A stretch of 64,000 nucleotides of DNA from assembly GCA_035403965.1 (NCBI GenBank), contig DAONGE010000002.1:64466-128465 (forward strand). Direction: 5' to 3'. A program made the position numbers and the translations under genes. The notes under the pieces are model-generated. The model saw only the letters and a program-made list of their open reading frames with translations, did no database searches and had not been told where the DNA came from. The DNA comes from Candidatus Omnitrophota bacterium (GTDB lineage: Bacteria > Omnitrophota > Gorgyraeia > Tantalellales > Tantalellaceae). Positions 25,585-60,916 of this stretch are shown in pieces (the first letter of the stretch is position 1; every line of letters begins with the position of its first letter).

Positions 25585-26790
25585 ATGGATAAAAACAGAA
25601 TAATTTCAGGATGCGATCATGCGATAGAATGGGGCTTTTATGTTCTTATCGTGGCGGCCGCGTTTTCGACTTCTCTTGTCGAATTGTCGGCCGGGGTGGT
25701 TATGTTGGGATGGATATTTAAAAAGCTATTAAAGTTCAGATTTGATGAATTTAAGATACCCGCGTTTTTTTTCTTGGGCGCGTTTGTTTTATGGTCTTTG
25801 CTTTCATGTTTTGACAGCTCATATCCCAAAGAAAGTTTTCGGGGTGTTTGTAAAGTTTTGGAATATGCGTTGCTTTTCATGTCGGTCGCGTTGGCGCTTG
25901 AGAATAAGAAAGTATGCGGCAGGTTCGCTAATATAATGTTGGTTGCTGTTTTTATCGTTTGCGTGGACGGATTTTATCAGTATTTCGCCGGAACGGATTT
26001 TTTGCGCGGCAGGGAACTTATACACGATGATTATATGCGTCGGGTGTCGGCATCCTTGATACATCCGAACGATTTCGGGGCGTATCTTGTTGTTGTGTGC
26101 ATGATACTTGTTTCGACCATATTGTCTAACTGGAAAAACATCAAATACCGGGTAGTCGCCGCGGTTGTGCTGGCCATGGCTCTTTTGAACTTATTCTTAA
26201 CTCAGTCTCGCGCGGCTTGGTTGTCTTTTGCCGTTGCCATGCTTTGCTACGGTTGGGTCCATGTGCGAAAAAGATTTGTAGTATTCATCATAGCGATAGT
26301 TGGAATATTGATTTTTATGCCGCAAACTGCAAAAGACCGAATGGTGAACACAATGAATTTTAAACTTGGCACTCCGTCCTGGGAACGGCTCAAATTGTGG
26401 CAGGCTACGGTAAGTATGATAAAGGATCGTCCTGTTCTGGGGATGGGCGTGAATACATATAGCCGCAATTTTCCGAAGTATAGACCGGCCGATTATCCGG
26501 ACGTAAGGTACGCGCATAATTCATATTTGCAAATAGCGTCGGAGGTCGGGATCCCCGGTGTTTTGTTGTTTTTGGCTTTTCTTGTGTCCGCTTTTTATTC
26601 GGCATTCAAACGTTCTGATCTTTTCTCAGGATATCGTACGGACATTTCGTATGGTCTTTTGTGGGGGCTTGTCGGTTTTGCGATAGCTAGTATGTTCGAT
26701 ACGCATATGCAGTCCGTTAGTCTTGTGGCGTTCTTTCACGCTTTATTGGGATACTGTTTTTCACTTAATCGGCGGAAAGATGTTAAATGA
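25585..26790 (+). CDS. O-antigen ligase / polymerase-like (Wzy_C domain) membrane protein
   Basis: It is polytopic and has the Wzy_C-like region LFLTQSRAAWLSFAVAML plus a large periplasmic loop. Confidence 0.6.
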   Translation: MDKNRIISGCDHAIEWGFYVLIVAAAFSTSLVELSAGVVMLGWIFKKLLKFRFDEFKIPAFFFLGAFVLWSLLSCFDSSYPKESFRGVCKVLEYALLFMSVALALENKKVCGRFANIMLVAVFIVCVDGFYQYFAGTDFLRGRELIHDDYMRRVSASLIHPNDFGAYLVVVCMILVSTILSNWKNIKYRVVAAVVLAMALLNLFLTQSRAAWLSFAVAMLCYGWVHVRKRFVVFIIAIVGILIFMPQTAKDRMVNTMNFKLGTPSWERLKLWQATVSMIKDRPVLGMGVNTYSRNFPKYRPADYPDVRYAHNSYLQIASEVGIPGVLLFLAFLVSAFYSAFKRSDLFSGYRTDISYGLLWGLVGFAIASMFDTHMQSVSLVAFFHALLGYCFSLNRRKDVK

Positions 26791-27823
26791 CCCAAAAAAA
26801 ATAGTTCTGATACGCACGGATAGGATCGGGGAAGTCCTTTTATCAAGCGTAGCGATAAACTGTGTTAAGTCCGACTGTCCCGGGGCCGCTGTCACATTTG
26901 TTACGTCAGCTTATTCTAAAGATCTAATTGACGGCCGTGAGGATGTTGACGAAGTTTTGATCGTTGATACTTTCATGTCAAAAGGCTGGATAGTAAGGGC
27001 TATAAAACTCGCCGTGGAACTCAGACGACGGCATTTTGATCTGGCCGTTGTAATGAATGCGCATAAGATGCTTCACTTGGCCGTATTTCTGGCGGGGATC
27101 CCTCTGCGTGTAGGTTACGGCAGAAAATGGGGATTTTTGCTAAATAAGACGATCGAGGACAGCCGGGATAAAGGGGAAAAACACGAAATTGAATATACGA
27201 TGGATCTTATGAATGCAGTCGGCATAAATGTCCCTCCGGTAGCGCCGTGTTTAACCGTCAAAAAAGAGAAAAAGAAAAAAGTTGAGGAAATGCTGAGGAA
27301 CTCCGGAATAGATATGATGGCGCCGATTATTGCGGTGCATCCGTCAAGCAGTAACCCAGGTAAATTGTGGCCGTGGAAAAAATACGCGGAACTTATAAAA
27401 ATGATCAAGAGTGAGATGAAGGCCGATGTTGTGATCATAGGTGACCGCGAGAGCGCGTTACTTGCTGACGATATCATTGCGATGTCCGGCGTGAGATCGG
27501 TGGGGAATTTTTGCGGCAAAATGGATCTCAAAGAATTAGCGGCGTTTTTAAGCATGTGCGCCTTATTTGTGGGGAACGATACAGGCCCTATGCATATGGC
27601 TGCCGCGGCCGGGATACCCGTCATAGCGATCTTTGGGAGGAACGTTCCGGGAGTAGGGCCCAAACGATGGCGGCCATGGGGCGTACGGCATGTGGTTTTT
27701 CACGAAGAACACGAATGCGCCATATGTCTTGACGGTGATTGTCCTTTTGATCACAGATGCCTCGCGGATATACAGACGGAAAAAGTTTTTGAGGCGGTAA
27801 AGGATATTTTGAACAAAAAGTGA
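26780..27823 (+). CDS. Glycosyltransferase family 9 (heptosyltransferase-like)
   Basis: It has KIVLIRTDRIGEV and GNDTGPMHMAAAAGIPVIAIFG. The ATG at 26780 overlaps the upstream stop. Confidence 0.7.
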   Translation: MLNDPKKIVLIRTDRIGEVLLSSVAINCVKSDCPGAAVTFVTSAYSKDLIDGREDVDEVLIVDTFMSKGWIVRAIKLAVELRRRHFDLAVVMNAHKMLHLAVFLAGIPLRVGYGRKWGFLLNKTIEDSRDKGEKHEIEYTMDLMNAVGINVPPVAPCLTVKKEKKKKVEEMLRNSGIDMMAPIIAVHPSSSNPGKLWPWKKYAELIKMIKSEMKADVVIIGDRESALLADDIIAMSGVRSVGNFCGKMDLKELAAFLSMCALFVGNDTGPMHMAAAAGIPVIAIFGRNVPGVGPKRWRPWGVRHVVFHEEHECAICLDGDCPFDHRCLADIQTEKVFEAVKDILNKK

Positions 27824-27827
27824 TCCG

Positions 27828-28913
27828 ATGAAAAAAATACTCATAGCGAATATTTTCGGGATAGGTGACGTGCTTTTTACGACGCCGCTTTTGGCGAATT
27901 TAAAAAAGGCGTTCCCGGACGCAGCCGTCGACTATATGTGTAACGCGAGGACGTGCCAGATACTGCGGAACGATCCTTTGATAAATAAGGTTTTTGTTTA
28001 TGAAAAAGACGAGTACGCGGAGATGTGGAAAAGGAGTAAAACGGAATTTTTTAAAAGAATATTCGCGTCTTTGTCTGAAATTAAAGGAAATAGATATGAT
28101 GCGGTTTTTGATTTTACTTTATCGAGGGAATTCAATGTTTTCTTTTTCGCGGCCGGGATAAAAAAACGCATAGGGTTTGATTATAAAAGGAGAGGGCTAT
28201 TCCTTACGCATAAGATGCGGATCCCTTGCTTTGCCGGCAGGCATGTGATCGAGCATTATCTTGATCTTCTAAAATATGCAGGTGTGGATCCGGAGATCAG
28301 GAATATGCGGATATCGGTGAATAAGGCCGCGGAGGAGTGGGCGGATGCATATTTTGCCGCGCACGGGTTAGATGGAAAAAAAACAGTGGCTGTTATTCCC
28401 GGCGGCGGCGCGAGTTGGGGAGGACATGCCGGCAGAAAAAGGTGGGGATCGGATAAATTTGCCTGTGTCGCGGATGATCTTGTGCAAAATTCTTATCAGG
28501 TCGCGGTGTTTGGTGACGCTAAAGAAAAGGAAATATGTGACGAAGTTGTCGCCGTGATGCGGCATAAAGGGATACCGGTCGAGACCGGAATGGATATAAA
28601 TAAATATATAGCGGTCCTTAATAAATGCCGGCTTGTTTTATGTAACGACGGAGGTCCTTTGCATATCGCCGTAGCTCTTGGAAAGAGCACGGTTTCTTTA
28701 TTTGGTCCCGTGGACCCAAATGTATATGGTCCATATCCGTGGGACGGGAATCATGTTGTCGTTACCAAAGGCGGTCTTGAGTGCAGGCCTTGTTACAGTA
28801 ATTTCAGGCTACCTCAATGTGACAAGGATATGATGTGCCTTAATGGGATAGATCCGGATCTTGTGGCCGAAGAAGTGAAAAGACTATTAAAAGTACATGC
28901 GGCGGGCAAATAA
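27828..28913 (+). CDS. Glycosyltransferase family 9 (heptosyltransferase-like)
   Basis: It has ILIANIFGIGDVLFTTP and CNDGGPLHIAVALGKSTVSLFG. Confidence 0.7.
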   Translation: MKKILIANIFGIGDVLFTTPLLANLKKAFPDAAVDYMCNARTCQILRNDPLINKVFVYEKDEYAEMWKRSKTEFFKRIFASLSEIKGNRYDAVFDFTLSREFNVFFFAAGIKKRIGFDYKRRGLFLTHKMRIPCFAGRHVIEHYLDLLKYAGVDPEIRNMRISVNKAAEEWADAYFAAHGLDGKKTVAVIPGGGASWGGHAGRKRWGSDKFACVADDLVQNSYQVAVFGDAKEKEICDEVVAVMRHKGIPVETGMDINKYIAVLNKCRLVLCNDGGPLHIAVALGKSTVSLFGPVDPNVYGPYPWDGNHVVVTKGGLECRPCYSNFRLPQCDKDMMCLNGIDPDLVAEEVKRLLKVHAAGK

Positions 28914-29896
28914 TGTATATATCATTCCTGAATAAAATAATGAGATCGGCGCAGAAGAAACACGCGGGGCGGTTATTTTATTTTCCGAATAAAATATCGA
29001 TAGAGCCGGGGAATATCTGCAATCTTAGATGTCCGCTTTGCCCGACGAATGATCCTGATAACGCGGATATAAAAAAAGGGATGATGTCTCTCGGCGATTT
29101 TAAGATCATATTCGATAAGATCAGTCCATTCGTAAAGACCATAGATCTTTTTAACTGGGGCGAACCGTTTTTAAATAAGGAAATAGGAGATATGGTCCGT
29201 TATGCGCGGGAGAGAAAACCCGGGATACGTGTTTTTATAGACAGTAATTTAAATATTATTAATGACGGACAAATCGACGCTATCGTGCGGTATGGTCTTG
29301 ACGTGCTGAAGGTTTCTTGCGACGGAGTGAGCCAGGCGGTATATGAAAAATACCGGCGTGGTGGGAATGTGAACGATGTTCTGGAAAATATAAAGAGGAT
29401 CATTCGAAAGAAGGAAGAACTTAAAATTGATAAGCCCCGGATCATATGGAAATATCTTGTGTTCAAACACAATATACATGAAGTCAATGAGGCGCGCCGC
29501 ATGGCCGGAGAACTTGGGATAGACCTTGAGGCGAGCGGAATGAGGATAAACTGCGGGAAAGAGATATTCGAGACCGTGGAGGAATCAGTGAGCCGTGACG
29601 CCGAATGGATCCCGTCCGGTACGGAATATGATAATTATAAGGATCTTGGAAAGAAAAAAGATACTTGTGAAAAACCGTGGAAGACAATGACGATAAATTG
29701 GGACGGTAGCGTAACCCCGTGCGGCGCCATTTATGACTGTGAAAAATATAATTTTGGGAATTTGATAAAAGAGAGCTTCGACGCTGTTTGGAACGGAAAG
29801 ATGTCCCGGACGGCCAGAGGCGTTATCGCGGATAAATGTGACGCGCCTGGGACTATCTGTTCTATATGTAAAAAGAACGGGTATCAATTTTTTTGA
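28913..29896 (+). CDS. Radical SAM protein with C-terminal SPASM/twitch-like Cys-rich domain
   Basis: It has a CNLRCPLCP (Cx3Cx2C) cluster. The C-terminal cysteines are CEKPW...CGAIYDC...CDAPGTICSIC. It overlaps the upstream stop by 1 nt. Confidence 0.6.
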   Translation: MYISFLNKIMRSAQKKHAGRLFYFPNKISIEPGNICNLRCPLCPTNDPDNADIKKGMMSLGDFKIIFDKISPFVKTIDLFNWGEPFLNKEIGDMVRYARERKPGIRVFIDSNLNIINDGQIDAIVRYGLDVLKVSCDGVSQAVYEKYRRGGNVNDVLENIKRIIRKKEELKIDKPRIIWKYLVFKHNIHEVNEARRMAGELGIDLEASGMRINCGKEIFETVEESVSRDAEWIPSGTEYDNYKDLGKKKDTCEKPWKTMTINWDGSVTPCGAIYDCEKYNFGNLIKESFDAVWNGKMSRTARGVIADKCDAPGTICSICKKNGYQFF

Positions 29897-29937
29897 GTTG
29901 CGGATGTGTGAGCAAAGAGTTCTGGGAGATTTGTTGA

Positions 29938-30078
29938 AGATGGCGTGCGGAAATCCGAGCATTGGAGAGAAAAGGCCACAATAGATAAAAGTAAATTACG
30001 CATCTACGCGAGGCAAACGCCGGGAGAATAAAAATAACAGGACTTTTCTCGAAACGCGCAGGATAACGCACGCCATCT
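29938..30078 (+). ncRNA. Candidate structured RNA / cis-regulatory leader element, copy A
   Basis: A perfect 12-bp closing stem (agatggcgtgcg / cgcacgccatct) encloses a core about 85% identical to copy B. The internal hairpin cgc-atcta-gcg is present. The strand is not determined. Confidence 0.4.
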
Positions 30079-30146
30079 AAGAGGTTGACACAACTATTCA
30101 TAGTGGGACGACGGGGTTGAGAAATTTAAGAGAAAGAGGATGAAAT

Positions 30147-31742
30147 ATGGTAGCAGATGGCAAATTTCCCTTATCGGTGGTGATAATCACCAAGAACGAG
30201 GAAAAACGTATCAAGGATTGTATCGAAAGTGTTAAATGGGCCGCTGAAATAATTGTTCTCGATGATTTCAGCAGGGACAGGACGGTCGATATCGCTAAGG
30301 AGCTTGGGGCGAAGGTTTATCAGAAGCAATGGACGAACGAAGGGGCCCACAGGAATTATGCGTATTCTCTCGCGACTAACGATTGGATACTCAGCCTTGA
30401 CGCGGATGAGCGCGTTACACCGGAACTGAAAGAGGAGATTGTTAGTACGCTGCAAAACGGCACGGATTGTAACGGTTTTGCTATCCCGAGAAAAAATTTT
30501 ATAGGCACATATTGGCTTCAGTATGGCGGATGGTATCCGAGCGCCCAGCTTCGTCTTTTCAGGCGCGGTGAGTTCAAGTATGAGGAAGTTGATGTTCATC
30601 CGCGCGCTTTCATGAAGGATCCGAGGGGAAATCTGAAAAATCCGATGCTTCATTATAGCTACAGGGACCTGGAAGATTTTGTGGCAAAGACCGACAATAT
30701 GACATCGCGCGAATGCGCGAAATGGATAGAGACGAAAGCCGAGATGCCTTTCGGCCGGGCGCTCAGGAGAAGCTTAGACAGGTTTTTCAGGGCGTATGGC
30801 CGAAAGCAGGGCAAGAAAGACGGGATGTACGGTTATATCGTGGCGATACTCGGCGGGTTTTACCAGTTTTTGAGTTATGCTAAATATTGGGAGAGAAAGC
30901 TTGGTGCCGCGTATCCTTATGATAATAAGTTGAAGGAACCTTTTGAGAAAATAGGCGCGAAGGATTGCGATAAGGAAAGAAAAAAATTATCCGTCGTCAT
31001 ACTGACCAAGAACGAAGAAGATAAGATTGCACATTGTCTGGCTACGCTTACATGGGCCGATGAAGTCGTACTTGTGGACGGTTTCAGTACCGATCTCACA
31101 GCTGAGATAGCCGAGAAATTCGGGGCGAAAGTGGTTCCACATAAATTCGAAGGGGATTTCGGTCTTGAAAGGAATATCGGTATAGAAAATTCATCGGGGG
31201 ACTGGGTGCTACAGCTTGACGCCGATGAAATGATGACCGCGGGTTTCAAGAAGAGGATCCTGTCTATCTTAAAAAAAGATGAAGGTTATGTGGCGTATAA
31301 ATTTATAAGGAAAAATTCTTTTCTCGGAAGATTCATGCGATATGGCGGATGGTATCATTATTCGCATCATTTTTTCAAAAAAGGGTTTGCGCATTACGAC
31401 GGCAGGGTGCACCATCAGCTTATCGTTGACGGCAAGCTTGGGGTTATTAAGGACGAACTTGAGCATTATCCGTTCCAGAGCATCGCGCAACTTGTTTCCA
31501 GACAGAATAGATACACGACCATAGAAGCCAGAGAGCTTATGGAACTTCGCGGGACGGTCAGCGATAAGGAATTCGCGTATAACATAAAAACTAAACCGCT
31601 GAAACTTTTCTGGAAGTTCTATGTTAAAAAGCAGGGATTCCGGGAAGGGATGCACGGGTTTATCTTTTCGGTATTATTTGCCTGGGTGCATTTTATAAAA
31701 TGGGCGAAGTATTGGGAAATGGCGCACGGAAAAGAGCAGTGA
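30147..31742 (+). CDS. Tandem-domain GT2 glycosyltransferase (two WaaE/KdtX-like GT2 domains)
   Basis: Two repeats of LSVVIxTKNEE...DDFS(T)D... are each followed by the DADE motif. Confidence 0.7.
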   Translation: MVADGKFPLSVVIITKNEEKRIKDCIESVKWAAEIIVLDDFSRDRTVDIAKELGAKVYQKQWTNEGAHRNYAYSLATNDWILSLDADERVTPELKEEIVSTLQNGTDCNGFAIPRKNFIGTYWLQYGGWYPSAQLRLFRRGEFKYEEVDVHPRAFMKDPRGNLKNPMLHYSYRDLEDFVAKTDNMTSRECAKWIETKAEMPFGRALRRSLDRFFRAYGRKQGKKDGMYGYIVAILGGFYQFLSYAKYWERKLGAAYPYDNKLKEPFEKIGAKDCDKERKKLSVVILTKNEEDKIAHCLATLTWADEVVLVDGFSTDLTAEIAEKFGAKVVPHKFEGDFGLERNIGIENSSGDWVLQLDADEMMTAGFKKRILSILKKDEGYVAYKFIRKNSFLGRFMRYGGWYHYSHHFFKKGFAHYDGRVHHQLIVDGKLGVIKDELEHYPFQSIAQLVSRQNRYTTIEARELMELRGTVSDKEFAYNIKTKPLKLFWKFYVKKQGFREGMHGFIFSVLFAWVHFIKWAKYWEMAHGKEQ

Positions 31743-31783
31743 GCTAAAGAGGTTGTTTTTGGGAAAAAATAAAGTTGTTTGAG

Positions 31784-31925
31784 GCGCCGGGCCGGGGTGT
31801 TCGAGCACTGGAGCGATTTTGAGGCAATAGATAAAAATAAATTACGCGTCAGCGCGAGTCGAACGCCGGGAGTATAAAAATAACACGAAAAATCGCGAAG
31901 CGCGCAGAATGCCCCGGCCCGGCGC
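31784..31925 (+). ncRNA. Candidate structured RNA / cis-regulatory leader element, copy B
   Basis: A perfect 14-bp closing stem (gcgccgggccgggg / ccccggcccggcgc) encloses the same conserved core (caatagataaaaRtaaattacgc...cgccgggagWataaaaataaca). The internal hairpin cgcg-tcag-cgcg is present. Confidence 0.4.
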
Positions 31926-31958
31926 GTGGCTAAAAAGTATTTTTAATGGGACAAGGAT

Positions 31959-33122
31959 ATGAGCGAGAAAGATAAAACGTGCGACATAGTGTTGTTGAGT
32001 TATGAGAACCCGGATCTTTTGGAGAAATGCGTAGTGAGTGTTCTTCATAATACGGATGTTCCGTCGCGTCTTATTATTGTCGATAACGCGAGTCGTAACG
32101 AGCGCGTGAAAAAATACATAAGTGATCTGGCGGGGAATGATGTTGTTTCTATCGAAAAAGTGTTTTGCGACAGGAATTATGGATTCGCCGGAGGTATAAA
32201 TAGAGGGATGCGGCTTTCGACATCCTCTTTTGTGTGCATACTGAACAATGATTGTATCGTGACGAAGTCATGGCTTTCGGAAATGATCAGTGTGGCCGTA
32301 AGTCAGAAAAATATCGGGCTTGTTAATCCGCAAAGCAGTACGTTCGGTTCTATCCCGTCTCCGGAAAAAGGGATCGAGAAGCACGCTGCCGAACTTTCAT
32401 GCCGTAAAGGGAAATATACGGAGCTTGGACATGCGATAGGTTTCGCGTGCCTTATAAAACGCGAGGTGATAGACAAGATTGGATATCTGGACGAGATATT
32501 TGAAGGCGTGTGCTATGAGGATACGGATTACTCCATGAGGGTGTTAAAGGCCGGATATATTTCGGTCATCGCCGAAGGGGCGTATGTTTTTCATCTGGAG
32601 CAGGCTTCGCGTAAAAATCTTAAGAACAGGGATGAAATATACGCGCGTAATTTATCATTATTTACAGAGAGATGGGGAAAGATACTGCGGGTATTGTATC
32701 TGGATCAGGGGCTCGATATCACTCAGACCGAATTTTTAAGAGAAGATTACGAGATGATGAGAGCGCTGTCCCGGCAAAGGGCTTTTGTGGATATGTGGGT
32801 CAAAGACAGTAAAAAACTGGTCACCCCTGGCGGCGCGTATGAATATCTTGGGGTTATACGCCATGCCGACGTTAATTTGAATGTGTTTTCGGACGCGTTT
32901 TACGGGATCCGTTTTCTGTGGAAAGTCCTTACAAAGAAGAAAAAGTATGACGCGGTTATTTTAAAGCAGGGTTTTTTATCCGGGATAGTTTCGTTTTTTG
33001 CGTTTACCGGTCGATATAAGGTCTTTATCCTGAACTACGATGATCGACTGATCGGGCCGGACGGAAAAATATTCGATCTTGTTGACGCCGTTGGATTAGC
33101 GGGGTATCTGAGGGGCGAATGA
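31959..33122 (+). CDS. Glycosyltransferase family 2
   Basis: It has IVLLSYEN, IIVDNASRNE and a YEDTD acidic motif. Confidence 0.65.
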   Translation: MSEKDKTCDIVLLSYENPDLLEKCVVSVLHNTDVPSRLIIVDNASRNERVKKYISDLAGNDVVSIEKVFCDRNYGFAGGINRGMRLSTSSFVCILNNDCIVTKSWLSEMISVAVSQKNIGLVNPQSSTFGSIPSPEKGIEKHAAELSCRKGKYTELGHAIGFACLIKREVIDKIGYLDEIFEGVCYEDTDYSMRVLKAGYISVIAEGAYVFHLEQASRKNLKNRDEIYARNLSLFTERWGKILRVLYLDQGLDITQTEFLREDYEMMRALSRQRAFVDMWVKDSKKLVTPGGAYEYLGVIRHADVNLNVFSDAFYGIRFLWKVLTKKKKYDAVILKQGFLSGIVSFFAFTGRYKVFILNYDDRLIGPDGKIFDLVDAVGLAGYLRGE

Positions 33123-33550
33123 TTAATTTTGGACTTGATAAAACGATCAAAGAGAAACTGCTGATAGTTTTTATATCGGCTTGGGTGATCATATGGGTGA
33201 TATTTCTTATACGTCCGGATAAAAAGGGGCAGTATCCTCTTTTGTTCAAGTTGTATGCTGCGCGGGGTGAGGAAAGGATCAGAACCGCTTTTGGGGCAGA
33301 TATGTACGATACGGTTATTTTTTGTAAAAACAATATGCGCCCTGGCGCCACATATCGTATGTATGGGTTCGAAAAATATTCTATTAACGAGGTTCGCGCC
33401 AGATATTTATTATGGCCGGCTAAATGTACCGGTGACGTTGAGCCTGATTATAAGATAGTTTTCGGAGGCGGGCTTGTGGACGAGAAAGGTTACCTGAGGA
33501 CGGATATCCCTGCCGGTAAAGGGTATCTATTGAGGAAAGAGCGATCATGA
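33119..33550 (+). CDS. Hypothetical small protein with N-terminal TM anchor
   Basis: It is translationally coupled on both sides (ATGA overlaps) and has one N-terminal TM helix. Confidence 0.4.
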   Translation: MINFGLDKTIKEKLLIVFISAWVIIWVIFLIRPDKKGQYPLLFKLYAARGEERIRTAFGADMYDTVIFCKNNMRPGATYRMYGFEKYSINEVRARYLLWPAKCTGDVEPDYKIVFGGGLVDEKGYLRTDIPAGKGYLLRKERS

Positions 33551-34920
33551 TGTTTTTGGTGGGAATAATATCTGTATTTGTTATGGGACTTGCCGTTGTT
33601 GCGATAATAGCCGCGGCAACCGGATATAGACCAAAATTTTTAGAAACGTTGGCGTTGTCTTTTTTTGCCGGTATGGGCGCGGTATCTCTTGCGTTGTTTT
33701 ATTGTGGGCTTATAGGAGTGCGTTATTCCATGGGTGTGTGCGTTGCTTTATTTATATTCGCGTTCGTCTTGATGGTATTTGGGTTTAGCCGGGGTTATTT
33801 GCCGCGGAATGTTGTTGGGGCTTTAAGATCGGGACGGGGTCTAAAGACGGTTGAAAAAATATTTATAGCCGGTATTTTTATCCAGGTTTTGTGGGTGTGG
33901 TTCCTGGTCGTTCCGTCCCCGGTGGAATCCCATGACGCGGTTGCGAATTACGCGCTGAAAGCAAAGATGTTTTACTATGATAAAGGTATCTCGTCCGGTT
34001 TCTTTAGATCGCAGGAGGCGACGGTGGCTCATCCGGATTACCCGCTACTTTTGCCGCTTTCCATGACATGGATATATCAATTCACCGGGTTCAACGATGT
34101 GATCATAACCCGCATAATGCCGGTATTTTACATGTGTGCTCTTTTGCTTATCTATTCATTGTCGCGGGCTTTTTTTAGCAGAACTTATTCGTTGATGGCG
34201 TTATTTGTCATGGCTACCGTCCCGCAATTTTTTGACTACGCTACAATAATACATACCGATATTATCCTGTCGGTTTTTATAGGCTGCGGTTTTATGTATA
34301 TGATGAAATATCTCTCCGGGCGACATGCGGGAGATATGGTTATTTCATCTGTTCTCATGGCGCTCGCGCTTTTTACGAAAAATGAAGCCGTACTTTTCTT
34401 TTTAATGTTCTTCGCTGTTCTTTCGATCGTTGGGGCGAGTACTCGGGCCTCGCGTTCGGTTATTAACTCGGCGCTAGTCGTAATATGCGTCATAGCAGGG
34501 CCGTGGTTCATAGTAAAACTATTTTTCGCCTCGGGGAATAACGATCTTGATATGGCGAAGATCACGCCGGGCAGGTTTTTTGAGAATATAAAATGTGTCC
34601 CGGCTGTTCTGGATATTTTTCAGCAGCAGGTATTTGGTCCGAAGAAATGGAATATTTTCTGGCCGCTTATTATCGGGAGCGTTATCCTTAAGTGGAAACA
34701 ACTTTTTTCGGAGAGCATCAGATGTATGACTATGTTCATTGTTTTTTGCGCCTTGGGATATTTCGCGGCTTATTTATTCATGACTGGTAACGATTCGGTT
34801 TATTTTTACGCAAATACGACGATGTCGCGTTTTATGCTTCACTTTACCGTATTATGCGGTTTTTATGCGGCGATGCTCCTTAAAAACGATATTGAGCCGT
34901 GTCTGGAAAAGTGGCGGTGA
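33547..34920 (+). CDS. Polytopic membrane protein, putative GT-C glycosyltransferase
   Basis: It has about 12 TM helices and a loop containing HPDYPLLLP. Its glycan-cluster context supports the call. Confidence 0.35.
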   Translation: MMFLVGIISVFVMGLAVVAIIAAATGYRPKFLETLALSFFAGMGAVSLALFYCGLIGVRYSMGVCVALFIFAFVLMVFGFSRGYLPRNVVGALRSGRGLKTVEKIFIAGIFIQVLWVWFLVVPSPVESHDAVANYALKAKMFYYDKGISSGFFRSQEATVAHPDYPLLLPLSMTWIYQFTGFNDVIITRIMPVFYMCALLLIYSLSRAFFSRTYSLMALFVMATVPQFFDYATIIHTDIILSVFIGCGFMYMMKYLSGRHAGDMVISSVLMALALFTKNEAVLFFLMFFAVLSIVGASTRASRSVINSALVVICVIAGPWFIVKLFFASGNNDLDMAKITPGRFFENIKCVPAVLDIFQQQVFGPKKWNIFWPLIIGSVILKWKQLFSESIRCMTMFIVFCALGYFAAYLFMTGNDSVYFYANTTMSRFMLHFTVLCGFYAAMLLKNDIEPCLEKWR

Positions 34921-34923
34921 TTA

Positions 34924-35511
34924 ATGAGAAAAAATATCATGGATAAATGTGTTTTTCTTGACAGGGACGGCGTGATAAATAAAGACGGTCACGGATGGAC
35001 CGAATATAGTTATATCACGCGCCCGGAGGATTTTTATTTTTTGAATAATGTGTTCAAGGCATTGAAGAAGTTTAGGGATCATGGGTATAAGTGTGTAGTG
35101 ATATCAAATCAGCAGGGTGTCGGCAAAGGATATTTCACCGAGAAGCAGCTCAAGGAAGTTACGGCATATATGATGGATAAAGTGGCGGAGAATGGCGGTA
35201 TGATAGACCGCGCGTATTATTGTATCCACACGAAAGAAGAAAAATGTAACTGCCGTAAGCCTGATACCGGGCTTTTTCTTAGGGCTGAGAAGGACCTAAA
35301 TATTCCGATCGTCTCAGGTGAATATTTTTTTGTGGGGGATACCGAACGGGATATGGAAGCCGGTAAAAAGGCCGGGCTCAGGACCGTTCTTGTCCTTTCC
35401 GGGAAGGCTAAGGCGGGGGACGAAGCGGAATGGGCGTTTAAACCGGAATTTGTCTGTGAGGATCTATTAGAGGCGTTCGATATCATAGAGAAAGAAGGGC
35501 AAAATAAATGA
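34924..35511 (+). CDS. gmhB: D-glycero-D-manno-heptose 1,7-bisphosphate phosphatase-like HAD-IIIA hydrolase
   Basis: It has FLDRDGVIN (DxDGT-type), VISNQQGVGKGYF, the Zn-binding CxC...CRKP pattern and FVGDTERDMEAG. Confidence 0.7.
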   Translation: MRKNIMDKCVFLDRDGVINKDGHGWTEYSYITRPEDFYFLNNVFKALKKFRDHGYKCVVISNQQGVGKGYFTEKQLKEVTAYMMDKVAENGGMIDRAYYCIHTKEEKCNCRKPDTGLFLRAEKDLNIPIVSGEYFFVGDTERDMEAGKKAGLRTVLVLSGKAKAGDEAEWAFKPEFVCEDLLEAFDIIEKEGQNK

Positions 35512-36638
35512 AAAAGATAATCATTATGTATTCAACGTCGGGACTTGGGCATAAATATACCGGAGAAGGCATATTGCAGGCTCTTCAGAAACGTGAAAAG
35601 GAGATAGACGTAAAATTCATTAATATCCTCGATTATGGGAATGGATTTTTTAAATTCCTTCATTTTAAATTTTATGTGACCTTGATGAAGTACGCTAAAA
35701 AACTGTGGGCGTTTCTGTATTATCTTTCGGATATGCCGGTGACTAGCACGATAATAAGGAAAACACTGCACGCGCTTGATAGTAAAAGCTGGCGCGGCCT
35801 TGAGGAACTTATGATAAAAGAAAAACCGGACGCGATAATAGCCACGCATTTTTTCCTGACCAGCATCGCGCATTCGATCAAATCCAATCCCGCGCTAAAG
35901 GTGAAACTGTATCTTATGGTTTCCGGGTTCGGCATGCATAATGTATGGTTTTCAAAAGATATCGATCATTTTTTTGTCGGTTCGGATGACGTGCAGAAAG
36001 ATCTTATGAAGCGCGGGATACATTATGAGGATATCACCGTGACTGGGATGCCGACAAAAGACGCGTTCAAAGCGCAAGGGGATGTGGTGAAGCTTCGGGC
36101 CGAATTTGGTCTGGACGCTGAGAAAAAAACAGTTCTTCTTTTAAGCGGCGGTTACGGGGTCGCTCCGATAGAGTCTATTCTCGGGTCCCTGAGATTGGTG
36201 AAAGCGCCGATACAGGTTATCGCGATATGCGGATATAATGAGGACGCGTACGCTAATGTGAATAAAAATAAGGATAAATACGGTTTCCCTGTTAAGGCCT
36301 TCGGTTTTACGGATAAAGTACCGGAACTTATGTCGGTGTCGGATCTCATAATCACTAAAGCCGGAACATCCAGCATCACTCAGGCTATGGCGATGTGTCT
36401 GCCGATGATATTGTTCTCGTATGTTCCCGGGCATGAAACGCCCACGGTGGAATATTTGCTTGAAAGCGGCGTGGCGCTTGAAGCCAGGAATATGGGAGAG
36501 ATCCCGGCGTTGGTGGATGATATCCTTCTTGATAAGGACCTGTATGACAAAATGAAAAAAGGGCTTGAGAAGATCAGGAAGCCGAACGCGGCCGATGAGA
36601 TAGTCGATATAGTGTTGGAAGATCTAGACCTTGTTTAA
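35508..36638 (+). CDS. GT28 MGDG-synthase/UgtP-like diacylglycerol glycosyltransferase, paralog 1
   Basis: The N-terminus SxGxGH (YSTSGLGHK) and the C-terminal TKAGTSSITQAMAMCLPMIL fit the MurG/MGDG family. Confidence 0.6.
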   Translation: MKKIIIMYSTSGLGHKYTGEGILQALQKREKEIDVKFINILDYGNGFFKFLHFKFYVTLMKYAKKLWAFLYYLSDMPVTSTIIRKTLHALDSKSWRGLEELMIKEKPDAIIATHFFLTSIAHSIKSNPALKVKLYLMVSGFGMHNVWFSKDIDHFFVGSDDVQKDLMKRGIHYEDITVTGMPTKDAFKAQGDVVKLRAEFGLDAEKKTVLLLSGGYGVAPIESILGSLRLVKAPIQVIAICGYNEDAYANVNKNKDKYGFPVKAFGFTDKVPELMSVSDLIITKAGTSSITQAMAMCLPMILFSYVPGHETPTVEYLLESGVALEARNMGEIPALVDDILLDKDLYDKMKKGLEKIRKPNAADEIVDIVLEDLDLV

Positions 36639-47108: not shown

Positions 47109-47146
47109 TAGTGGTCGGTTATTTTCGGATTTGTGGTCAGCTTGCA

Positions 47147-47352
47147 GTATAAAGTCCGAACGGTAAGATCCCTTCCCCCAAAATTTTTTAACGTATTTTT
47201 TATCGCTTTTCAGGGGGCATGCAAAAACTCGCCCCCCATGTGTTCCTATATCCGTCGGGGCTCAGACATTTGCATGCCTGTTTCCCTGAAAAGCTCAAAA
47301 AATACTAAAATTTTGAAGGGGCCCCTTGGATCTTGCCGTTTGGACTTTATTC
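47147..47352. repeat. Long imperfect palindrome (about 205 bp, MITE-like / long hairpin) element 1
   Basis: The outer arms gtataaagtccgaacggtaagatcc (47147-) and ggatcttgccgtttggactttat (-47350) are near-perfect reverse complements. Inner arm segments also match, with the centre near 47250. Confidence 0.55.
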
Positions 47353-47484
47353 CGCACCAGAACCCCCCAAACTCCGGTTGGGGGGTGAATAGGGATGCCG
47401 AACACATGGTGTTCGATGCGGGATTCCGCAATAAAAAGGAACTGCAGATTCCTGTTCGAGGGGCTCCATGATATGCGATGAGGT

Positions 47485-47718
47485 GGGGAGAAGGTTCAAT
47501 TTTGAAGTGAATACGATTTTCCCAAGAATTTTTTGACAATTTTGGGAACCCTTGGAATGGAAATGACAAGGGCGGCGAGGACTGTTTGAGGTTTAACGGG
47601 GTATGTGTTCTGCTAAAGAACATATATCCCGTTAAACCGAGTTCCGCAGACGCCAAAATTGGCGAGAAATTCTTGGGAAAAGAAAATCGTCTGAACGAAA
47701 AAATTGAACCTTCTCCCC
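47485..47718. repeat. Long imperfect palindrome (about 235 bp, MITE-like / long hairpin) element 2
   Basis: The outer arms are ggggagaaggttcaatttt...cgattttcccaagaatttt and gagaaattcttgggaaaagaaaatcg...aaaattgaaccttctcccc. A central 21-bp hairpin lies at 47590-47638. Confidence 0.55.
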
Positions 47719-47875
47719 ATTCGGCGGAAGAAAAGGCAAAATGGACAAAAGGGGGGGGACTATGGGCAAAAAACCTTTGCCTAAAGGGCGGAAGTATGCT
47801 ATAAATATTGACCTACGCAAGGGGCTTTTTCTGTGTAAAAACATTGCATAGCCCTATAATAATGGAGGGGGAAAC

Positions 47876-54709: not shown

Positions 54710-55435
54710 ATGATAAAGCTCGATAACGTAAAAAAATATTTCAGACAGAACACGATGTTCGGAACGGCCGCGAATATCGTGAAAGCTGTAGATGGCGTAA
54801 GCTTTTCTGTCGATAAGGGGAAAACATTCGGTCTTGTAGGCGAGTCCGGATGCGGGAAGACCACATTGTCGAAACTGATTACGGGGCTTATTGAGCCGGA
54901 TAGTGGTAGCGTAAAGGTGTCTGGAGACGTCGATATGGTTTTTCAGGATCCTTTTAGCTCTTTAAATCCGCGCATGACGATCGAGGAAATAATAGCTGAA
55001 CCTCTTCTTGTCAGGGGAATTAAACGGTCAGCCGCTTTGACAAAAGTCGCCGAAACGCTGAATATGGTGAAACTTGGCAGACGCAGCGTTCTTAAAGGAT
55101 ATCCGCATCAATTCTCTGGCGGCGAGCGACAGAGGATAGCTATCGCACGAGCGATTATACGCCGTCCGGCGGTGTTGATCCTGGACGAACCGGTATCGAG
55201 CCTCGATGTTTCGATACAGGCCAGCATACTGAATCTTCTTAAAGATATCCAGGAAGAATTGGCTCTAACATATATTTTTATTTCACACGATCTTCGTGTG
55301 GTTGAATTCATGTCGGATATCATCGGTGTGATGAAGGATGGAACGCTTATTGAGATTGCTTCGTGCGATGATATTTATAGCTCGCCGAAACATGAATATA
55401 CGCGTCGGCTTATAAGTGCAATCCCGACTATTTGA
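54710..55435 (+). CDS. ABC transporter ATP-binding protein (OppF/DppF-like)
   Basis: It has Walker A GESGCGKTT, signature FSGGERQR and Walker B ILDEPVSSLD. Confidence 0.85.
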   Translation: MIKLDNVKKYFRQNTMFGTAANIVKAVDGVSFSVDKGKTFGLVGESGCGKTTLSKLITGLIEPDSGSVKVSGDVDMVFQDPFSSLNPRMTIEEIIAEPLLVRGIKRSAALTKVAETLNMVKLGRRSVLKGYPHQFSGGERQRIAIARAIIRRPAVLILDEPVSSLDVSIQASILNLLKDIQEELALTYIFISHDLRVVEFMSDIIGVMKDGTLIEIASCDDIYSSPKHEYTRRLISAIPTI

Positions 55436-58917: not shown

Positions 58918-59010
58918 TATCTTTCGAGCATAGTGCATCAGTCAGGTCGGTTCGCGTTTTTGGCAGTTGTTATCAACGTTCAAAATCATATGATCAAGTT
59001 TGTGTTACCA

Positions 59011-59075
59011 TGTGTTTGTAATATGCAATTCTAGCTTAAGGGGCGAGTGCCTGTCGCGGGAGGATATATGAAGAC
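59011..59075 (+). repeat. Duplicated copy of the 60076-60140 gene-leader (promoter-like + hairpin + RBS + ATG)
   Basis: It is about 80% identical to 60076-60140 over 65 nt, including gtaatRtRYaattctagcttaagggg...gggaggatatatgaag. Confidence 0.6.
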
Positions 59076-59088
59076 TCAAATCTTTTGT

Positions 59089-59241
59089 TTCACACGATCT
59101 TCGTGTGGTTGTATTCATGTCGGATATCATTGGAGTGATGAAGGATGGAGCGCTTGTTGAAATTGCTTCATGTAATGATATTTATAGCGCACCGAAACAT
59201 GGATATACATGTCGTCTAATTAATGCAATCCCGGGTATTTA
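59089..59241 (+). pseudogene. Remnant 3' end (51 codons) of a second OppF-like ABC ATPase gene, fused out of frame to a duplicated leader/start codon
   Basis: It is about 85% nucleotide identical to 55283-55435. The reading frame is intact but carries conservative substitutions (SHDLRVVVFMSDIIGVMKDGALVEIASCNDIYSAPKHGYTCRLINAIPGI*). There is no start codon, and the junction lies at atattttRtttcac. Confidence 0.6.
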
Positions 59242-59920: not shown

Positions 59921-60136
59921 GTAAGTAAAAAATCCGGATCCCAGTCAGATGATTGGCGAGAGGGCATCATAGCCGCCATACAATTCTACATATTGGGAAT
60001 GTCGTGCTCCCTGCCGTTGCAGATTCATCAGATATAATTATTTATAAAGAACAAAATATAAATCGGATTTGTTCAACTATGTATTGGTAATGTATAATTC
60101 TAGCTTAAGGGGCAAGAACATGCCCCGGGAGGATAT

Positions 60137-60916
60137 ATGAAGGCACAGATATTTTATTTCACCGGTACCGGTAATTCGCTGAAAATAGCTAAAGATCTCG
60201 CGGACGAGCTCGGCGGCGCGGATGTGGTCAATATCGCGAAGATCAAAGACGTAGAAGTTTGTCTGTCCGGAGAAACGATAGGGATAGTATGCCCTGTTTA
60301 CGCGTTCGGATTGCCGTTCGCGGTGGTGGATTTCATTAAAAAAATAAAAGATTCTAAGGATAGGTACTTTTTTGCGGTAGTGAATTTCGGAGGCATGGGT
60401 GGCAGCGCGCTTCATATAATGGAAAAGACACTGGCCGAACGGGGGATCGCGTTGAGCTCCGGGTTCGGTATAAAAATGCCGGATAACTACATCCCCTGGA
60501 TGGGGGAAATAGATAAGGAAGGTAATGAGAAGATATTGGAACAGGAAGAACAAAGAATAAAACAAATAGCTTCTATTATAAAAGAGAAGAGAGAGCATAA
60601 AAAAGAATTCGGGAATGTTTTAACCAATGTTATTGGAAAGGCTGTTCATAGACTTTTTACTAAGCACATGAATCGCGCGGATAAAAAATTCTGGGTGAAC
60701 GATAAATGTAATAGCTGCGGCATATGTGCAAGGATATGCCCGTCGGATAATGTGAAATTGGAGAATGGCAAACCGAAGTGGGATCACAAGTGCCAATTTT
60801 GTCTTGCCTGTATACAATGGTGTCCGTCTTCCGCCATACAATATGGGGAGAAGTCTGTTGGCAAAGGAAGATACCATAATTCGAGAATTGACATTAAGGA
60901 AATGATGTTGTCGTAA
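60137..60916 (+). CDS. EFR1-family ferredoxin (flavodoxin-like N-domain + two 4Fe-4S clusters)
   Basis: The N-terminus (MKAQIFYFTGTGNS) is flavodoxin-like. Two Cys clusters are present, CNSCGICARICP and CQFCLACIQWCP. Confidence 0.65.
   Translation: MKAQIFYFTGTGNSLKIAKDLADELGGADVVNIAKIKDVEVCLSGETIGIVCPVYAFGLPFAVVDFIKKIKDSKDRYFFAVVNFGGMGGSALHIMEKTLAERGIALSSGFGIKMPDNYIPWMGEIDKEGNEKILEQEEQRIKQIASIIKEKREHKKEFGNVLTNVIGKAVHRLFTKHMNRADKKFWVNDKCNSCGICARICPSDNVKLENGKPKWDHKCQFCLACIQWCPSSAIQYGEKSVGKGRYHNSRIDIKEMMLS

Follow-up and report, generated by a model that had tools for sequence, protein, structure and literature searches.

Genomic Setting of the Two Elements

The window analysed in this study is a 64,000-nt stretch of DNA from a Candidatus Omnitrophota bacterium (contig DAONGE010000002.1, positions 64,466 to 128,465). 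Two similar elements, copy A (29938-30078) and copy B (31784-31925), were located in it at the positions given by an earlier note on this sequence. The core motifs occurred twice each in the window, with zero occurrences expected by chance. Both copies lie in sense orientation 5' of GT2 genes, within a co-directional glycan/LPS gene cluster with which they are almost certainly co-transcribed. Each copy begins 42 nt past the upstream stop codon, and the distance from the hairpin end to the start codon is 69 nt for A and 34 nt for B. The features are as follows:

29928-30090, + strand: copy A, subfamily S1, with conserved flanks (blastn against S1 copies of other loci, 90-92% identity)
29938-29949, + strand: 5' arm of the A outer stem, pairing with 30067-30078 (12/12 complementary)
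29953-29966, + strand: 5' strands of P1a and P1b of A with the conserved internal loop ATCCGAGCATTGGA (fold and family covariation)
29967-29974, + strand: 5' arm of helix P2 of A, GAGAAAAG, pairing with 30043-30050, CTTTTCTC
29975-30042, + strand: apical core of A, rich in A, largely unpaired and containing a weak mini-hairpin of 3 bp (representative copies 70-93% identical)
30043-30064, + strand: 3' arm of P2 of A, conserved loop CGAAACGCGCAG and 3' strands of P1b and P1a (fold and family covariation)
30067-30078, + strand: 3' arm of the A outer stem, pairing with 29938-29949
31765-31944, + strand: copy B, subfamily S2, full imperfect palindrome (inverted repeat I2, arms 31765-31802 and 31907-31944)
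31784-31797, + strand: 5' arm of the B outer stem, pairing with 31912-31925 (14/14 complementary)
31813-31820, + strand: 5' arm of helix P2 of B, GCGATTTT, pairing with 31889-31896, AAAATCGC
31821-31888, + strand: apical core of B (comparison with the core of A and of representative copies)
31912-31925, + strand: 3' arm of the B outer stem, pairing with 31784-31797
47140-47720, no strand assigned: further long palindromic modules repeated in the same genome, clustered here and distinct from the element

The ORFs spanning the element were inconsistent between A and B, indicating that the element is non-coding. Small ORFs in the core were rejected on inspection as inconsistent among A, B and S3. 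No U-tract was found 3' of the hairpin, and the terminator scan was empty at the element ends. No promoter, IHF, DnaA-box or CsrA-like motif in the core appeared by eye to be conserved across subfamilies. The ten ORFs of the interval 25585-36638 include no recombinase or integrase. When more variants of the scaffold were sought by regex (GAGYAY ... RCGCAG, folding stably), only known copies and coding-region noise were recovered. The palindromic modules at 47140-47720 also accompany element copies at other loci.

Fold of Copies A and B

Copy A is closed by the perfect inverted repeat AGATGGCGTGCG/CGCACGCCATCT and copy B by GCGCCGGGCCGGGG/CCCCGGCCCGGCGC. The CM matched copy A at 29951-30066 with 139 bits and copy B at 31797-31912 with 144.5 bits. 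The shuffle test of folding gave z = -5.6 for A and z = -4.6 for B, both far more stable than the shuffles. Each copy can adopt a hairpin of ~35-40 bp. It is interrupted by two small internal loops of conserved sequence, GAGCAYTGGAG and CGAARCGCGCAG, and carries at its tip an A-rich apical module of ~65 nt that is conserved as well. The element is 140-180 nt long.

The apical cores of A and B showed 84% identity, and the internal loops were conserved too. The outer stem, P1a, P1b and P2 are unlike in sequence in the two copies yet complementary. In P1a and P1b, covarying pairs change from U-A to C-G. The 8-bp helix P2 changed both sides in 5 of its 8 pairs with complementarity kept. This helix had been overlooked in the earlier note. 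Its description of two similar elements with a conserved core and differing complementary stems is supported by the coordinates, the perfect repeats, the shuffle scores and the covariation reported below.

Two details of that description were revised. The mini-hairpin had been read as compensated, but A and B share its three pairs (CGC/GCG), B merely adds a fourth through one substitution, and only 67% of this helix is paired family-wide. The closing stems are indeed perfect and complementary, but that of A is not unique, since ~17 other S1 copies have the outer stem AGATGTCGTGCG/CGCACGACATCT, which departs from that of A at a single compensated pair (T-A to G-C); A likewise stands one compensated pair away from the S1 consensus. 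Sequence conservation of A runs past the hairpin, to approximately 29928-30090.

Copies beyond the Window

The scan of metagenome contigs gave 52 loci. Its motif was S1-specific, and S2 copies were under-sampled. CM R1 gave 41 strong matches (E below 1e-5), ~28 of them distinct, in the digester metagenomes Ga0116171 and Ga0209099. The search for further copies proposed in the earlier note thus added ~28 distinct copies in two metagenomes. The organism of the window is present in Ga0209099, as indicated by an exact protein match (L066). The tetranucleotide correlation with the window was 0.84-0.97 for element loci, 0.59-0.86 for relatives and ~0 for most chance matches. On the basis of composition and co-occurrence, the other copies are assigned to the same or a closely related genome, and two copies lie within the 64-kb window itself.

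Every copy was intergenic, in mixed orientation to the flanking genes. Between co-directional genes, S1 copies were antisense in four cases and sense in one, which is A. The adjoining genes were unrelated: mraZ, mraW, cstA, terC, a corC-type gene and B12-radical SAM. Copies elsewhere are single or inverted between housekeeping genes, and no co-oriented arrays were seen among them.

Subfamilies were distinguished among the copies: S1 (A-like), S2 (B-like) and S3. They are often clustered, mosaic, chimeric or truncated, with one chimera at L016:2843-2958, one mini copy lacking the core at L060:836-897, head-to-head pairs of S3 with S1, and fragments. The start of L004 falls within copy A, at an assembly break. 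The S2-type copies each have an unrelated outer stem around cores of 72-90% identity. The outer stems of S1, S3 and the mini copy recur between copies, as does the outside sequence GGATTGTGTTGAAG ... CTAAGAGGTAGACAG, indicating that the repeated unit includes the outer stem. At L054:2301-2415, the core and P2 sit on a different, continuous stem from which the usual internal loops are absent; a fragment in L018 has the same stem.

In the syntenic loci of relatives (L006, L007 and L009), the element was absent and unrelated hairpins occupied the same gaps. The GT2 orthologues of these clusters (67-72% identity) have no copy, and the tandem-GT2 gene stands in the same place.

No match was found in viral contigs, nor in the plasmid and phage collections by blastn in distant mode. 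In GTDB genome contigs, pattern 1 (TAAATTAC..GAG..ACGCCGGGAG) gave 0 matches; it was over-strict, as GCTAG replaces GCGAG in most S1 copies. Pattern 2 (ACGCCKGGAGNNNAAAAATAAC) gave 3 matches in unrelated phyla, all CM-negative and attributed to chance. The Rfam check suggested in the earlier note gave no match: at the gathering threshold, cmscan against Rfam 15 found none anywhere in the window, and at E up to 10 it found only noise in 29800-32050.

Covariation and Strand Tests

In the family alignment, which was fitted to the model and holds only ~5 independent subfamilies, 83% of the cells were paired and 17 of the 22 pairs had changed on both sides. None of 500 shuffles reached this level, and the slid controls were 36-58% paired. 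P2 (helix 3) was 95% paired, with 7/8 pairs changed on both sides. Among representative copies, identity between subfamilies was 19-67% in the helix columns, 69-93% in the core and up to 100% in the internal loops. Compensation was also seen inside S1, where one outer-stem pair is C-G in most copies, T-G in L060 and T-A in L025. Compensatory change has kept the helices paired around unpaired sequence that is conserved, and the covariation confirms family-wide what the earlier note had read from two copies.

The earlier note had further held that such compensated helices are not expected of a plain protein-binding DNA repeat; the mobile hairpins of REPINs are known to show the same pattern. Compensatory changes are common in REPINs, which form clusters and whose hairpin has been proposed to form in ssDNA or mRNA (PMC3116915).

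The MFE strand test identified no functional strand: the mean difference was -0.6 kcal/mol, and 17 of the 28 copies were more stable on their own strand. Among intact copies, those of S1 and S2 were usually somewhat more stable on that strand (e.g., -55.8 vs. -44.5 and -68.1 vs. -59.9 kcal/mol), whereas S3 copies were more stable on the opposite strand. The helix mismatches were balanced (9 G-U vs. 10 A-C), showing no strand asymmetry. The orientation of S1 copies relative to the local GC skew (11 vs. 5 clear cases) was not significant.

The Element as a Target of an IS1111-Type Insertion Sequence

An IS1111-type IS was found at one identical position in 8 distinct S1 copies, joined in each to the same IS end at AG|CATTGG. 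Both IS junctions were seen in L018, with AG on each side. The element is a specific landing site of this IS1111-type IS. In copy A, the equivalent site (29953-29966) is intact and unoccupied. The candidate S1 target sequence of the IS1111 recombinase, with its AG core, is AAATCCGAGCATTGGAG. At the right end of the IS, AUCCGAG and UCCAAUGC face each other across a predicted internal loop. These putative guide segments fit the LTG/RTG rule of PMC11208160, and the predicted bridge-RNA loop matches the S1 site. REP elements are likewise described as IS targets in the work of Tobes and Pareja, as cited in PMC11208160.

No homology between the element and the IS was found beyond the guide segments of 7-8 nt. 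Positions 1500-4000 of L018 matched no curated bridge-RNA family in Rfam, and the search for further IS110 copies returned only the single L018 transposase. No RAYT/IS200-like gene was found by phmmer in 1,090 ORFs, which cover a fraction of the genome, with an approximate IS200 TnpA as seed.

Interpretation

Copies A and B are probably members of a family of structured, intergenic palindromic repeats, similar to REP, ERIC and MITE, in Omnitrophota of anaerobic digesters. The two represent different subfamilies, and many copies of the family are spread over the genome. The earlier note had named membership of a known IS or MITE repeat family as an argument against a structured RNA; the copies do essentially belong to such a repeat family, although to none previously described.

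The element would spread or be copied as a unit, as REP/REPIN, ERIC or MITE elements are. No transposase sharing its ends, target-site duplication or filled/empty site polymorphism was found for this putatively mobile unit. The folded single-stranded form, as ssDNA or RNA, would be what matters, which may be why the unpaired nucleotides are conserved and the helices need only pair. Locally, A and B would most likely form a long RNA hairpin between cistrons. We speculate that this hairpin may act as a barrier to 3' exonucleases or as a processing site for RNase III/E, and that it would uncouple the message levels of rSAM, tandem-GT2 and GT2. Ligand sensing by A or B is unlikely.

Some features sit poorly with a repeat family of this kind. 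The S2 stems differ in each copy, unlike the terminal repeats of classical MITEs, and point mutation cannot yield such differing stems while the core is still 70-90% identical. A long, conserved and mostly unpaired A-rich core is also foreign to REP, REPIN and ERIC. It is possible, if unlikely, that the copies represent a new element recognised by its fold, with interchangeable helices, invariant unpaired nucleotides and the A-rich module of ~65 nt. Such an element would be copied between hairpins (or whole) by a single-strand-specific enzyme, or would be a host RNA module carried on any stable stem. It would then constitute an Omnitrophota structured-repeat class distinct from REP/RAYT, MITE and attC.

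We consider it improbable that the element is a host-domesticated RNA module, under selection chiefly as RNA, whose hairpin once transcribed displays the A-rich module and the GGA-containing loops to a protein or RNase. At many operons it would then govern how mRNA is degraded or processed, or else titrate an RNA-binding protein. Functional RNAs typically combine conserved unpaired segments with helices that vary freely, and the window copies are sense and inside an operon. The somewhat better folding of the own strand in intact S1 and S2 copies points the same way, and the unrelated long hairpins of a relative in the same two gaps hint that a hairpin is wanted there. However, the family occurs in both orientations, and an A-rich loop that binds a protein is not interchangeable with its complement. 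The balanced G-U and A-C mismatches, the S3 copies that are more stable on the opposite strand, the persistence of fragments, chimeras and IS-disrupted copies, and the lack of an Rfam family also argue against this module.

The unrelated S2 outer stems would also arise if the mobile unit consisted only of P1b/P2 and the core and entered the loops of pre-existing palindromes or terminator-like hairpins, the outer stems being target DNA. The simple long hairpins already present in the orthologous gaps of relatives and the different continuous stem of L054:2301-2415 are consistent with this. We nevertheless regard such loop-targeted insertion as very improbable, because S1, S3 and the mini copy conserve their outer stems and flanks, and the inner helices P1a and P2 covary too, which insertion cannot explain. 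As the S1-specific scan motif under-sampled S2, the seemingly unique S2 stems may belong to unsampled subfamilies; the stem of L054:2301 recurs in the L018 fragment.

The earlier note had proposed a riboswitch or attenuator leader for the downstream GT2 genes. This is hardly credible. Both window copies are sense, 5' of GT2 and 42 nt past a stop codon, and their helices covary; but other copies flank unrelated genes in both orientations, often antisense, the family includes clusters, chimeras and fragments, and the GT2 orthologues in the syntenic clusters of relatives do without a copy. No expression platform, whether a terminator/anti-terminator pair or SD sequestration, is linked to the conserved fold. 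A U-tract, an Rfam match and strand asymmetry are also absent, and most of the conserved part is unstructured, which an aptamer would not be.

The same note had also offered a recombination role for the flanking copies, and it is equally hard to credit that they are attC-like sites making the tandem-GT2 gene a mobile cassette: two palindromes of variable sequence and conserved structure do flank one gene as direct repeats, and the IS1111 group is known to target attC sites, but the hairpin base lacks R''/R' GTTRRRY boxes, no integrase or recombinase lies nearby, no co-oriented arrays occur elsewhere, and the gene holds the same place in relatives lacking the element.

Significance

With the repeat family as the preferred reading, a false riboswitch candidate is removed. 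Two copies with a conserved core and compensated stems are not sufficient grounds for calling a regulatory RNA, since this signature is also that of mobile palindromic repeats. The analysis describes a family of structured repeats from Omnitrophota, a phylum of which almost all knowledge comes from metagenomes, and our literature search found no description of such repeats in it. Assemblies break at these repeats, which could be useful for marking strains. They also offer a natural case in which the predicted bridge RNA of an IS1111-type element is programmed for a repeat of its host that gives it a safe place to insert.

Comparison with Known Systems

Like the element, attC sites are imperfect palindromes that are recognised by their fold rather than their sequence and flank genes, and they are targets of some IS1111-group elements. 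The element differs in having no R''/L'' and L'/R' boxes (RYYYAAC ... GTTRRRY), no integrase nearby and mixed orientations. The centre of attC is variable, whereas that of the element is its most conserved part.

MITEs are likewise small, non-coding and multi-copy, and S1 and S3 have terminal inverted repeats. Near-identical copies inside a subfamily suggest amplification bursts, and assembly breaks occur. In contrast to MITEs, no target-site duplication was seen in the S3 and S1 flanks inspected, where boundaries are blurred by the mosaic context. There is also no parent IS with matching ends, as the L018 IS sits inside the element and does not share its termini, and the S2 outer stems differ from copy to copy.

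ERIC/IRU elements are imperfect palindromes of ~127 nt in enterobacteria, and Correia/NEMIS elements occur in Neisseria. In the studies of De Gregorio et al., their RNA hairpin reportedly affects mRNA processing and stability. The element resembles ERIC and Correia in size (~100-170 nt), in its long imperfect palindrome, in its position in transcribed intergenic regions of operons and in having subfamilies. It has no sequence similarity to them, and the TIRs, TA duplication and IHF sites of Correia were not seen in it. ERIC and Correia keep one stem sequence across copies, whereas the stems of the element vary.

The element shares with REP/REPIN/BIME its multi-copy, strictly extragenic occurrence in both orientations, often clustered in mosaic arrays, and its role as a favoured target of IS110-family ISs. 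It also shares with REPs and REPINs the formation of hairpins with compensatory changes (PMC3116915). REPs are gamma-proteobacterial and mobilised by RAYT (TnpA-REP), whereas the element comes from an unrelated phylum and no RAYT was found by phmmer with the approximate seed in the fraction of the genome covered. REPs are units of 20-40 nt with conserved stems and a 5' GTAG-type tetranucleotide, which the element is not. A REPIN consists of two inverted, short, conserved REPs around a variable spacer or loop; in the element, the ~65-nt apex and the internal loops are conserved and the stems vary. This architecture is the inverse of that of REPINs and raises the question of what recognises the family.

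Copies A and B and their fold

Copies A and B of the element lie where the earlier note had placed them (29938-30078 and 31784-31925) and align over 116 nt without gaps. The shared core is confirmed: the central part is highly similar, and the internal loops GAGCAYTGGAG and CGAARCGCGCAG are identical. The 64-kb window contains every core motif exactly two times, where chance would predict none. Both copies fold much better than shuffled sequence on both strands (z of -4.6 to -6.0). The fold is a single long hairpin with the following parts.

Parts of the hairpin in copies A and B
29938-29949 with 30067-30078: outer stem of A, 12 bp
31784-31797 with 31912-31925: outer stem of B, 14 bp
P1a: inner helix, 4-6 bp
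P1b: inner helix, 2+2 bp flanking a bulge
P2: inner helix, 8 bp, GAGAAAAG/CTTTTCTC in A and GCGATTTT/AAAATCGC in B, 5 pairs altered on both sides
Apical region: about 68 nt, A-rich and largely unpaired

The alignment bears out that the helices differ in sequence and are still complementary. P2, overlooked earlier, is the best-compensated helix. The mini-hairpin had been over-read as a compensatory change: three of its pairs are the same in A and B, and B adds a fourth through one substitution. In both copies the outer stem begins exactly 42 nt past the upstream stop codon (29896-29938 and 31742-31784), the match to R1, the covariance model of the element, begins 55 nt past it, and a similar short motif stands directly ahead of the stem (TTGTTGAAG in A, TTGTTTGAGG in B). 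This spacing and motif may have arisen by chance or may belong to the repeated unit.

Gene setting and orthologous sites

The genes flanking A and B code for a radical-SAM/SPASM enzyme, a tandem GT2 and a GT2. They belong to a long co-directional cluster for glycan/LPS, whose other products include Wzy, GT9, PMT_2, HAD and MGDG-synthase-like proteins. The NCBI source label of the tandem GT2 protein is a Candidatus Omnitrophota MAG. All window genes examined are on the + strand, each 2-kb bin of 1-64000 has a strongly positive GC skew (+0.12 to +0.29), and the window holds no tRNA. The proposed cmscan comparison was run against Rfam 15; no family matched, whether the window was searched at gathering thresholds or the element region with E values up to 10.

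The same strain is present in several digester assemblies, all of which contain A and B. A Logan assembly contig of this strain (L004) begins inside A, L004:1-84 corresponding to model positions 33-116, which is consistent with a repeat that breaks short-read assemblies. The syntenic clusters of three relatives, L006, L007 and L009, have tandem GT2 proteins of 72%, 68% and 67% identity. An R1 search of all DNA from these loci returned no element copy, and the matching intergenic gaps are shorter than in the window. Two of the relatives have hairpins in these gaps that are unrelated to the element; those of L007 are near-perfect with low-complexity arms (z = -7.6 and -7.0).

Unrelated hairpins in the relatives
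L007:9898-9982: rSAM/GT2 gap, 25-27 bp
L007:11598-11670: GT2/GT2 gap, 25-27 bp
L009:11634-11679: same intergenic gaps, 13 bp

At the GT2 sites the element is therefore lineage-specific, yet some type of hairpin is seen there repeatedly. This means either that a hairpin is favoured at these junctions between cistrons or that the gaps are colonised in each genome by that genome's own palindromes.

A dispersed intergenic repeat family

Metagenome contigs were scanned with the 18-base pattern CGCCGGGAGNATAAAAATA, and 52 loci were returned. R1 gave 41 strong matches (E < 1e-5), only in the metagenomes Ga0116171 and Ga0209099; the loci without an R1 match are the chance matches expected of an 18-base pattern. 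The further copies that the earlier note had suggested searching for thus exist, about 28 being distinct after duplicates present in both samples were dropped. The organism of the window is present in Ga0209099 (exact protein match, contig Ga0209099_1000266), and tetranucleotide correlation with the window is 0.84-0.97 for the element loci, 0.59-0.86 for the relatives and about 0 for most chance loci; this makes it probable that the copies belong to the window's own genome or to that of a very close relative. No family member turned up in two scans covering 185,579 species-representative genomes or in searches of plasmid, phage and viral collections, and no description of the family was found in the literature searched.

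Every copy is intergenic. The neighbours include mraZ/mraW, cstA, terC, a corC-type gene and a B12-radical-SAM gene, and orientation relative to the flanking genes is mixed. Between co-directional genes, four copies of the A-like subfamily S1 are antisense and one, A itself, is sense; S2 and S3 occur in both orientations. Orientation was not significantly biased with respect to local GC skew.

Subfamilies of the element
S1: A-like; P2 GAGAAAAG(CCC); outer stem AGATGTCGTGCG/CGCACGACATCT, common to about 17 copies
S2: B-like; P2 variants including GCAATTC/GAATTGT and ACGATTT/AAACGT; outer stem differs from copy to copy
S3: P2 GAAAAAT(ACCC); outer stem CCGCCTGTTCGGA/TCCGAACAGGCGG

The outer stem of A is one compensated T-A to G-C pair apart from that of S1. 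A chimera (L016:2843-2958) is S3 in its 5' half and S2 in its 3' half, with the junction at the mini-hairpin, and its arms no longer pair. A core-less 62-nt mini copy (L060:836-897) has retained the flanks and internal loops of S1, while its outer stem is its own and its P2 is a simple hairpin. Fragments also occur. Copies often adjoin each other, for example S3 and S1 head to head, and in L044 two S1 copies have another palindrome of 196 nt between them. Variants of this palindrome are also found at 47503-47698 of the window, a stretch sharing about 82% identity with copies that adjoin S1/S2 elements in L033, L041, L044 and L054. The region 47140-47720, downstream of the GAPDH gene and its terminator, is a cluster of other long palindromic repeats.

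Palindrome arms in window 47140-47720
47484-47521/47682-47719
47517-47545/47653-47681
47590-47611/47617-47638
47197-47215/47284-47302

The similarity of 47503-47698 to palindromes at those other loci suggests a BIME-like mosaic of several repeat families. Elsewhere in the window, 58999-59240 is a chimeric fragment (compared with 60068-60162 and 55276-55433). At 79% identity, one part matches the flavodoxin-like gene at 60137 over its promoter/leader and first codons; joined to it is a second part that duplicates, at 87% identity, the final 158 nt of the ABC-ATPase gene 54710-55435. The fragment has the look of a pseudogene or of a scar left by rearrangement.

Covariation and strand

In the 28-copy alignment, standard pairs filled 83% of cells, against 36-58% when partners were slid by 1-3 columns. 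The helix covariation anticipated earlier was found, with 17 of 22 pairs altered on both sides and none of 500 shuffles reaching the observed values, in an alignment fitted to the model and with only about five subfamilies as independent events. Pairing was 97% in P1b and 95% in P2, and only 67% in the mini-hairpin. Between subfamily representatives, identity was 19-67% in helix columns, 69-90% in the apical core and up to 100% in the internal loops. Within S1 the outer stem shows the series C-G to T-G to T-A (L060, L025).

Helix mismatches are balanced (9 G-U, 10 A-C). Fold energy differs between strands by a mean of -0.6 kcal/mol, with neither strand consistently better; S1 and S2 lean to the element's own strand and S3 to the opposite one. 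The structure is under selection, but RNA is not singled out. Compensated helices had been read as the mark of a structured RNA. REPINs are mobile DNA that also shows compensatory change in long hairpins, with folding proposed in ssDNA or mRNA (PMC3116915), so this signature does not separate a regulatory RNA from a mobile palindrome.

An IS1111-type insertion sequence with S1 as its landing site

In L018, an S1 copy is interrupted by a 1.4-kb insertion sequence (L018:2116-3541) encoding a 354-aa DEDD/Transposase_20 (IS110-family) protein. Its subterminal inverted repeats are 16 bp in length (AAAGTGTCAAGCTTCC/GGAAGCTTGACACTTT), and its right end is long, about 250 nt. Such repeats, a long right end and a DEDD transposase are features of the IS1111 group (PMC11208160). 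The junctions read ...GATTCG-AG/IS/AG-CATTGG..., with the AG core on both sides. The same right end abuts AGCATTGGAG in eight distinct S1 copies, each followed by a different downstream flank and most of them located at contig ends.

The predicted fold of the right end has an internal loop. One side, UCCAAUGC, is the reverse complement of GCATTGGA, and the other, AUCCGAG, equals the left flank plus the AG core.

Guide-like segments of the insertion sequence
L018:3360-3367
L018:3384-3390

In the target-binding loop of a bridge RNA, the LTG reads as the left target does on its top strand, and the RTG complements the right target (PMC11208160). The modelled loop has the arrangement expected of one and is a candidate target-binding loop. 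The element and the insertion sequence share no sequence beyond the guide-like segments. In A the target is intact and unoccupied (29953-29966); in B the corresponding site differs (TTCGAGCACTGG). Repeated palindromes as IS110-family targets are a known property of REP elements, according to reference 11 in PMC11208160.

Possible mechanism

The element is a multi-copy, orientation-free, mosaic intergenic repeat whose helices are maintained by compensation and whose unpaired parts are conserved in sequence. The functional form would be a folded single strand. By analogy, the family may propagate or be homogenised as REP/REPIN, ERIC or MITE elements are. Neither IS ends matching those of the element nor target duplications at its copies were found, and a RAYT-like gene had no match in the limited portion of DNA examined, a weak test.

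Point mutation alone cannot produce wholly different stems around cores of about 70-90% identity. Module exchange would be required, and one chimera was observed. Alternatively, the inner part could insert into other hairpins; the conservation of sequence beyond the outer stem as well speaks against this in S1, S3 and the mini copy. Within the operon-like cluster, A and B each follow a stop codon and have no U-tract, so the most likely local effect would be an inter-cistronic dsRNA hairpin that alters processing or decay. The earlier reading of the element as a GT2 leader or riboswitch, suggested by its place ahead of these genes, is refuted by the dispersed copies, their mixed orientation and unrelated neighbours, the Rfam result and the relatives' loci, and such a role is now highly improbable.

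Comparison with known repeats

In the way it works the element resembles REP/REPIN, BIME, ERIC or Correia-type repeats, yet it is a member of none and has no sequence similarity to them. Its conservation pattern is inverted relative to that of REPINs. It is of ERIC-like size, but its stems are variable. It differs from MITEs in that neither a TSD nor a parent IS was found, and it does not have the defining features of attC. The element is best classed as an intergenic palindromic repeat, a known kind in a new form, and its family architecture and its connection with an IS1111 bridge-RNA target deserve mention.
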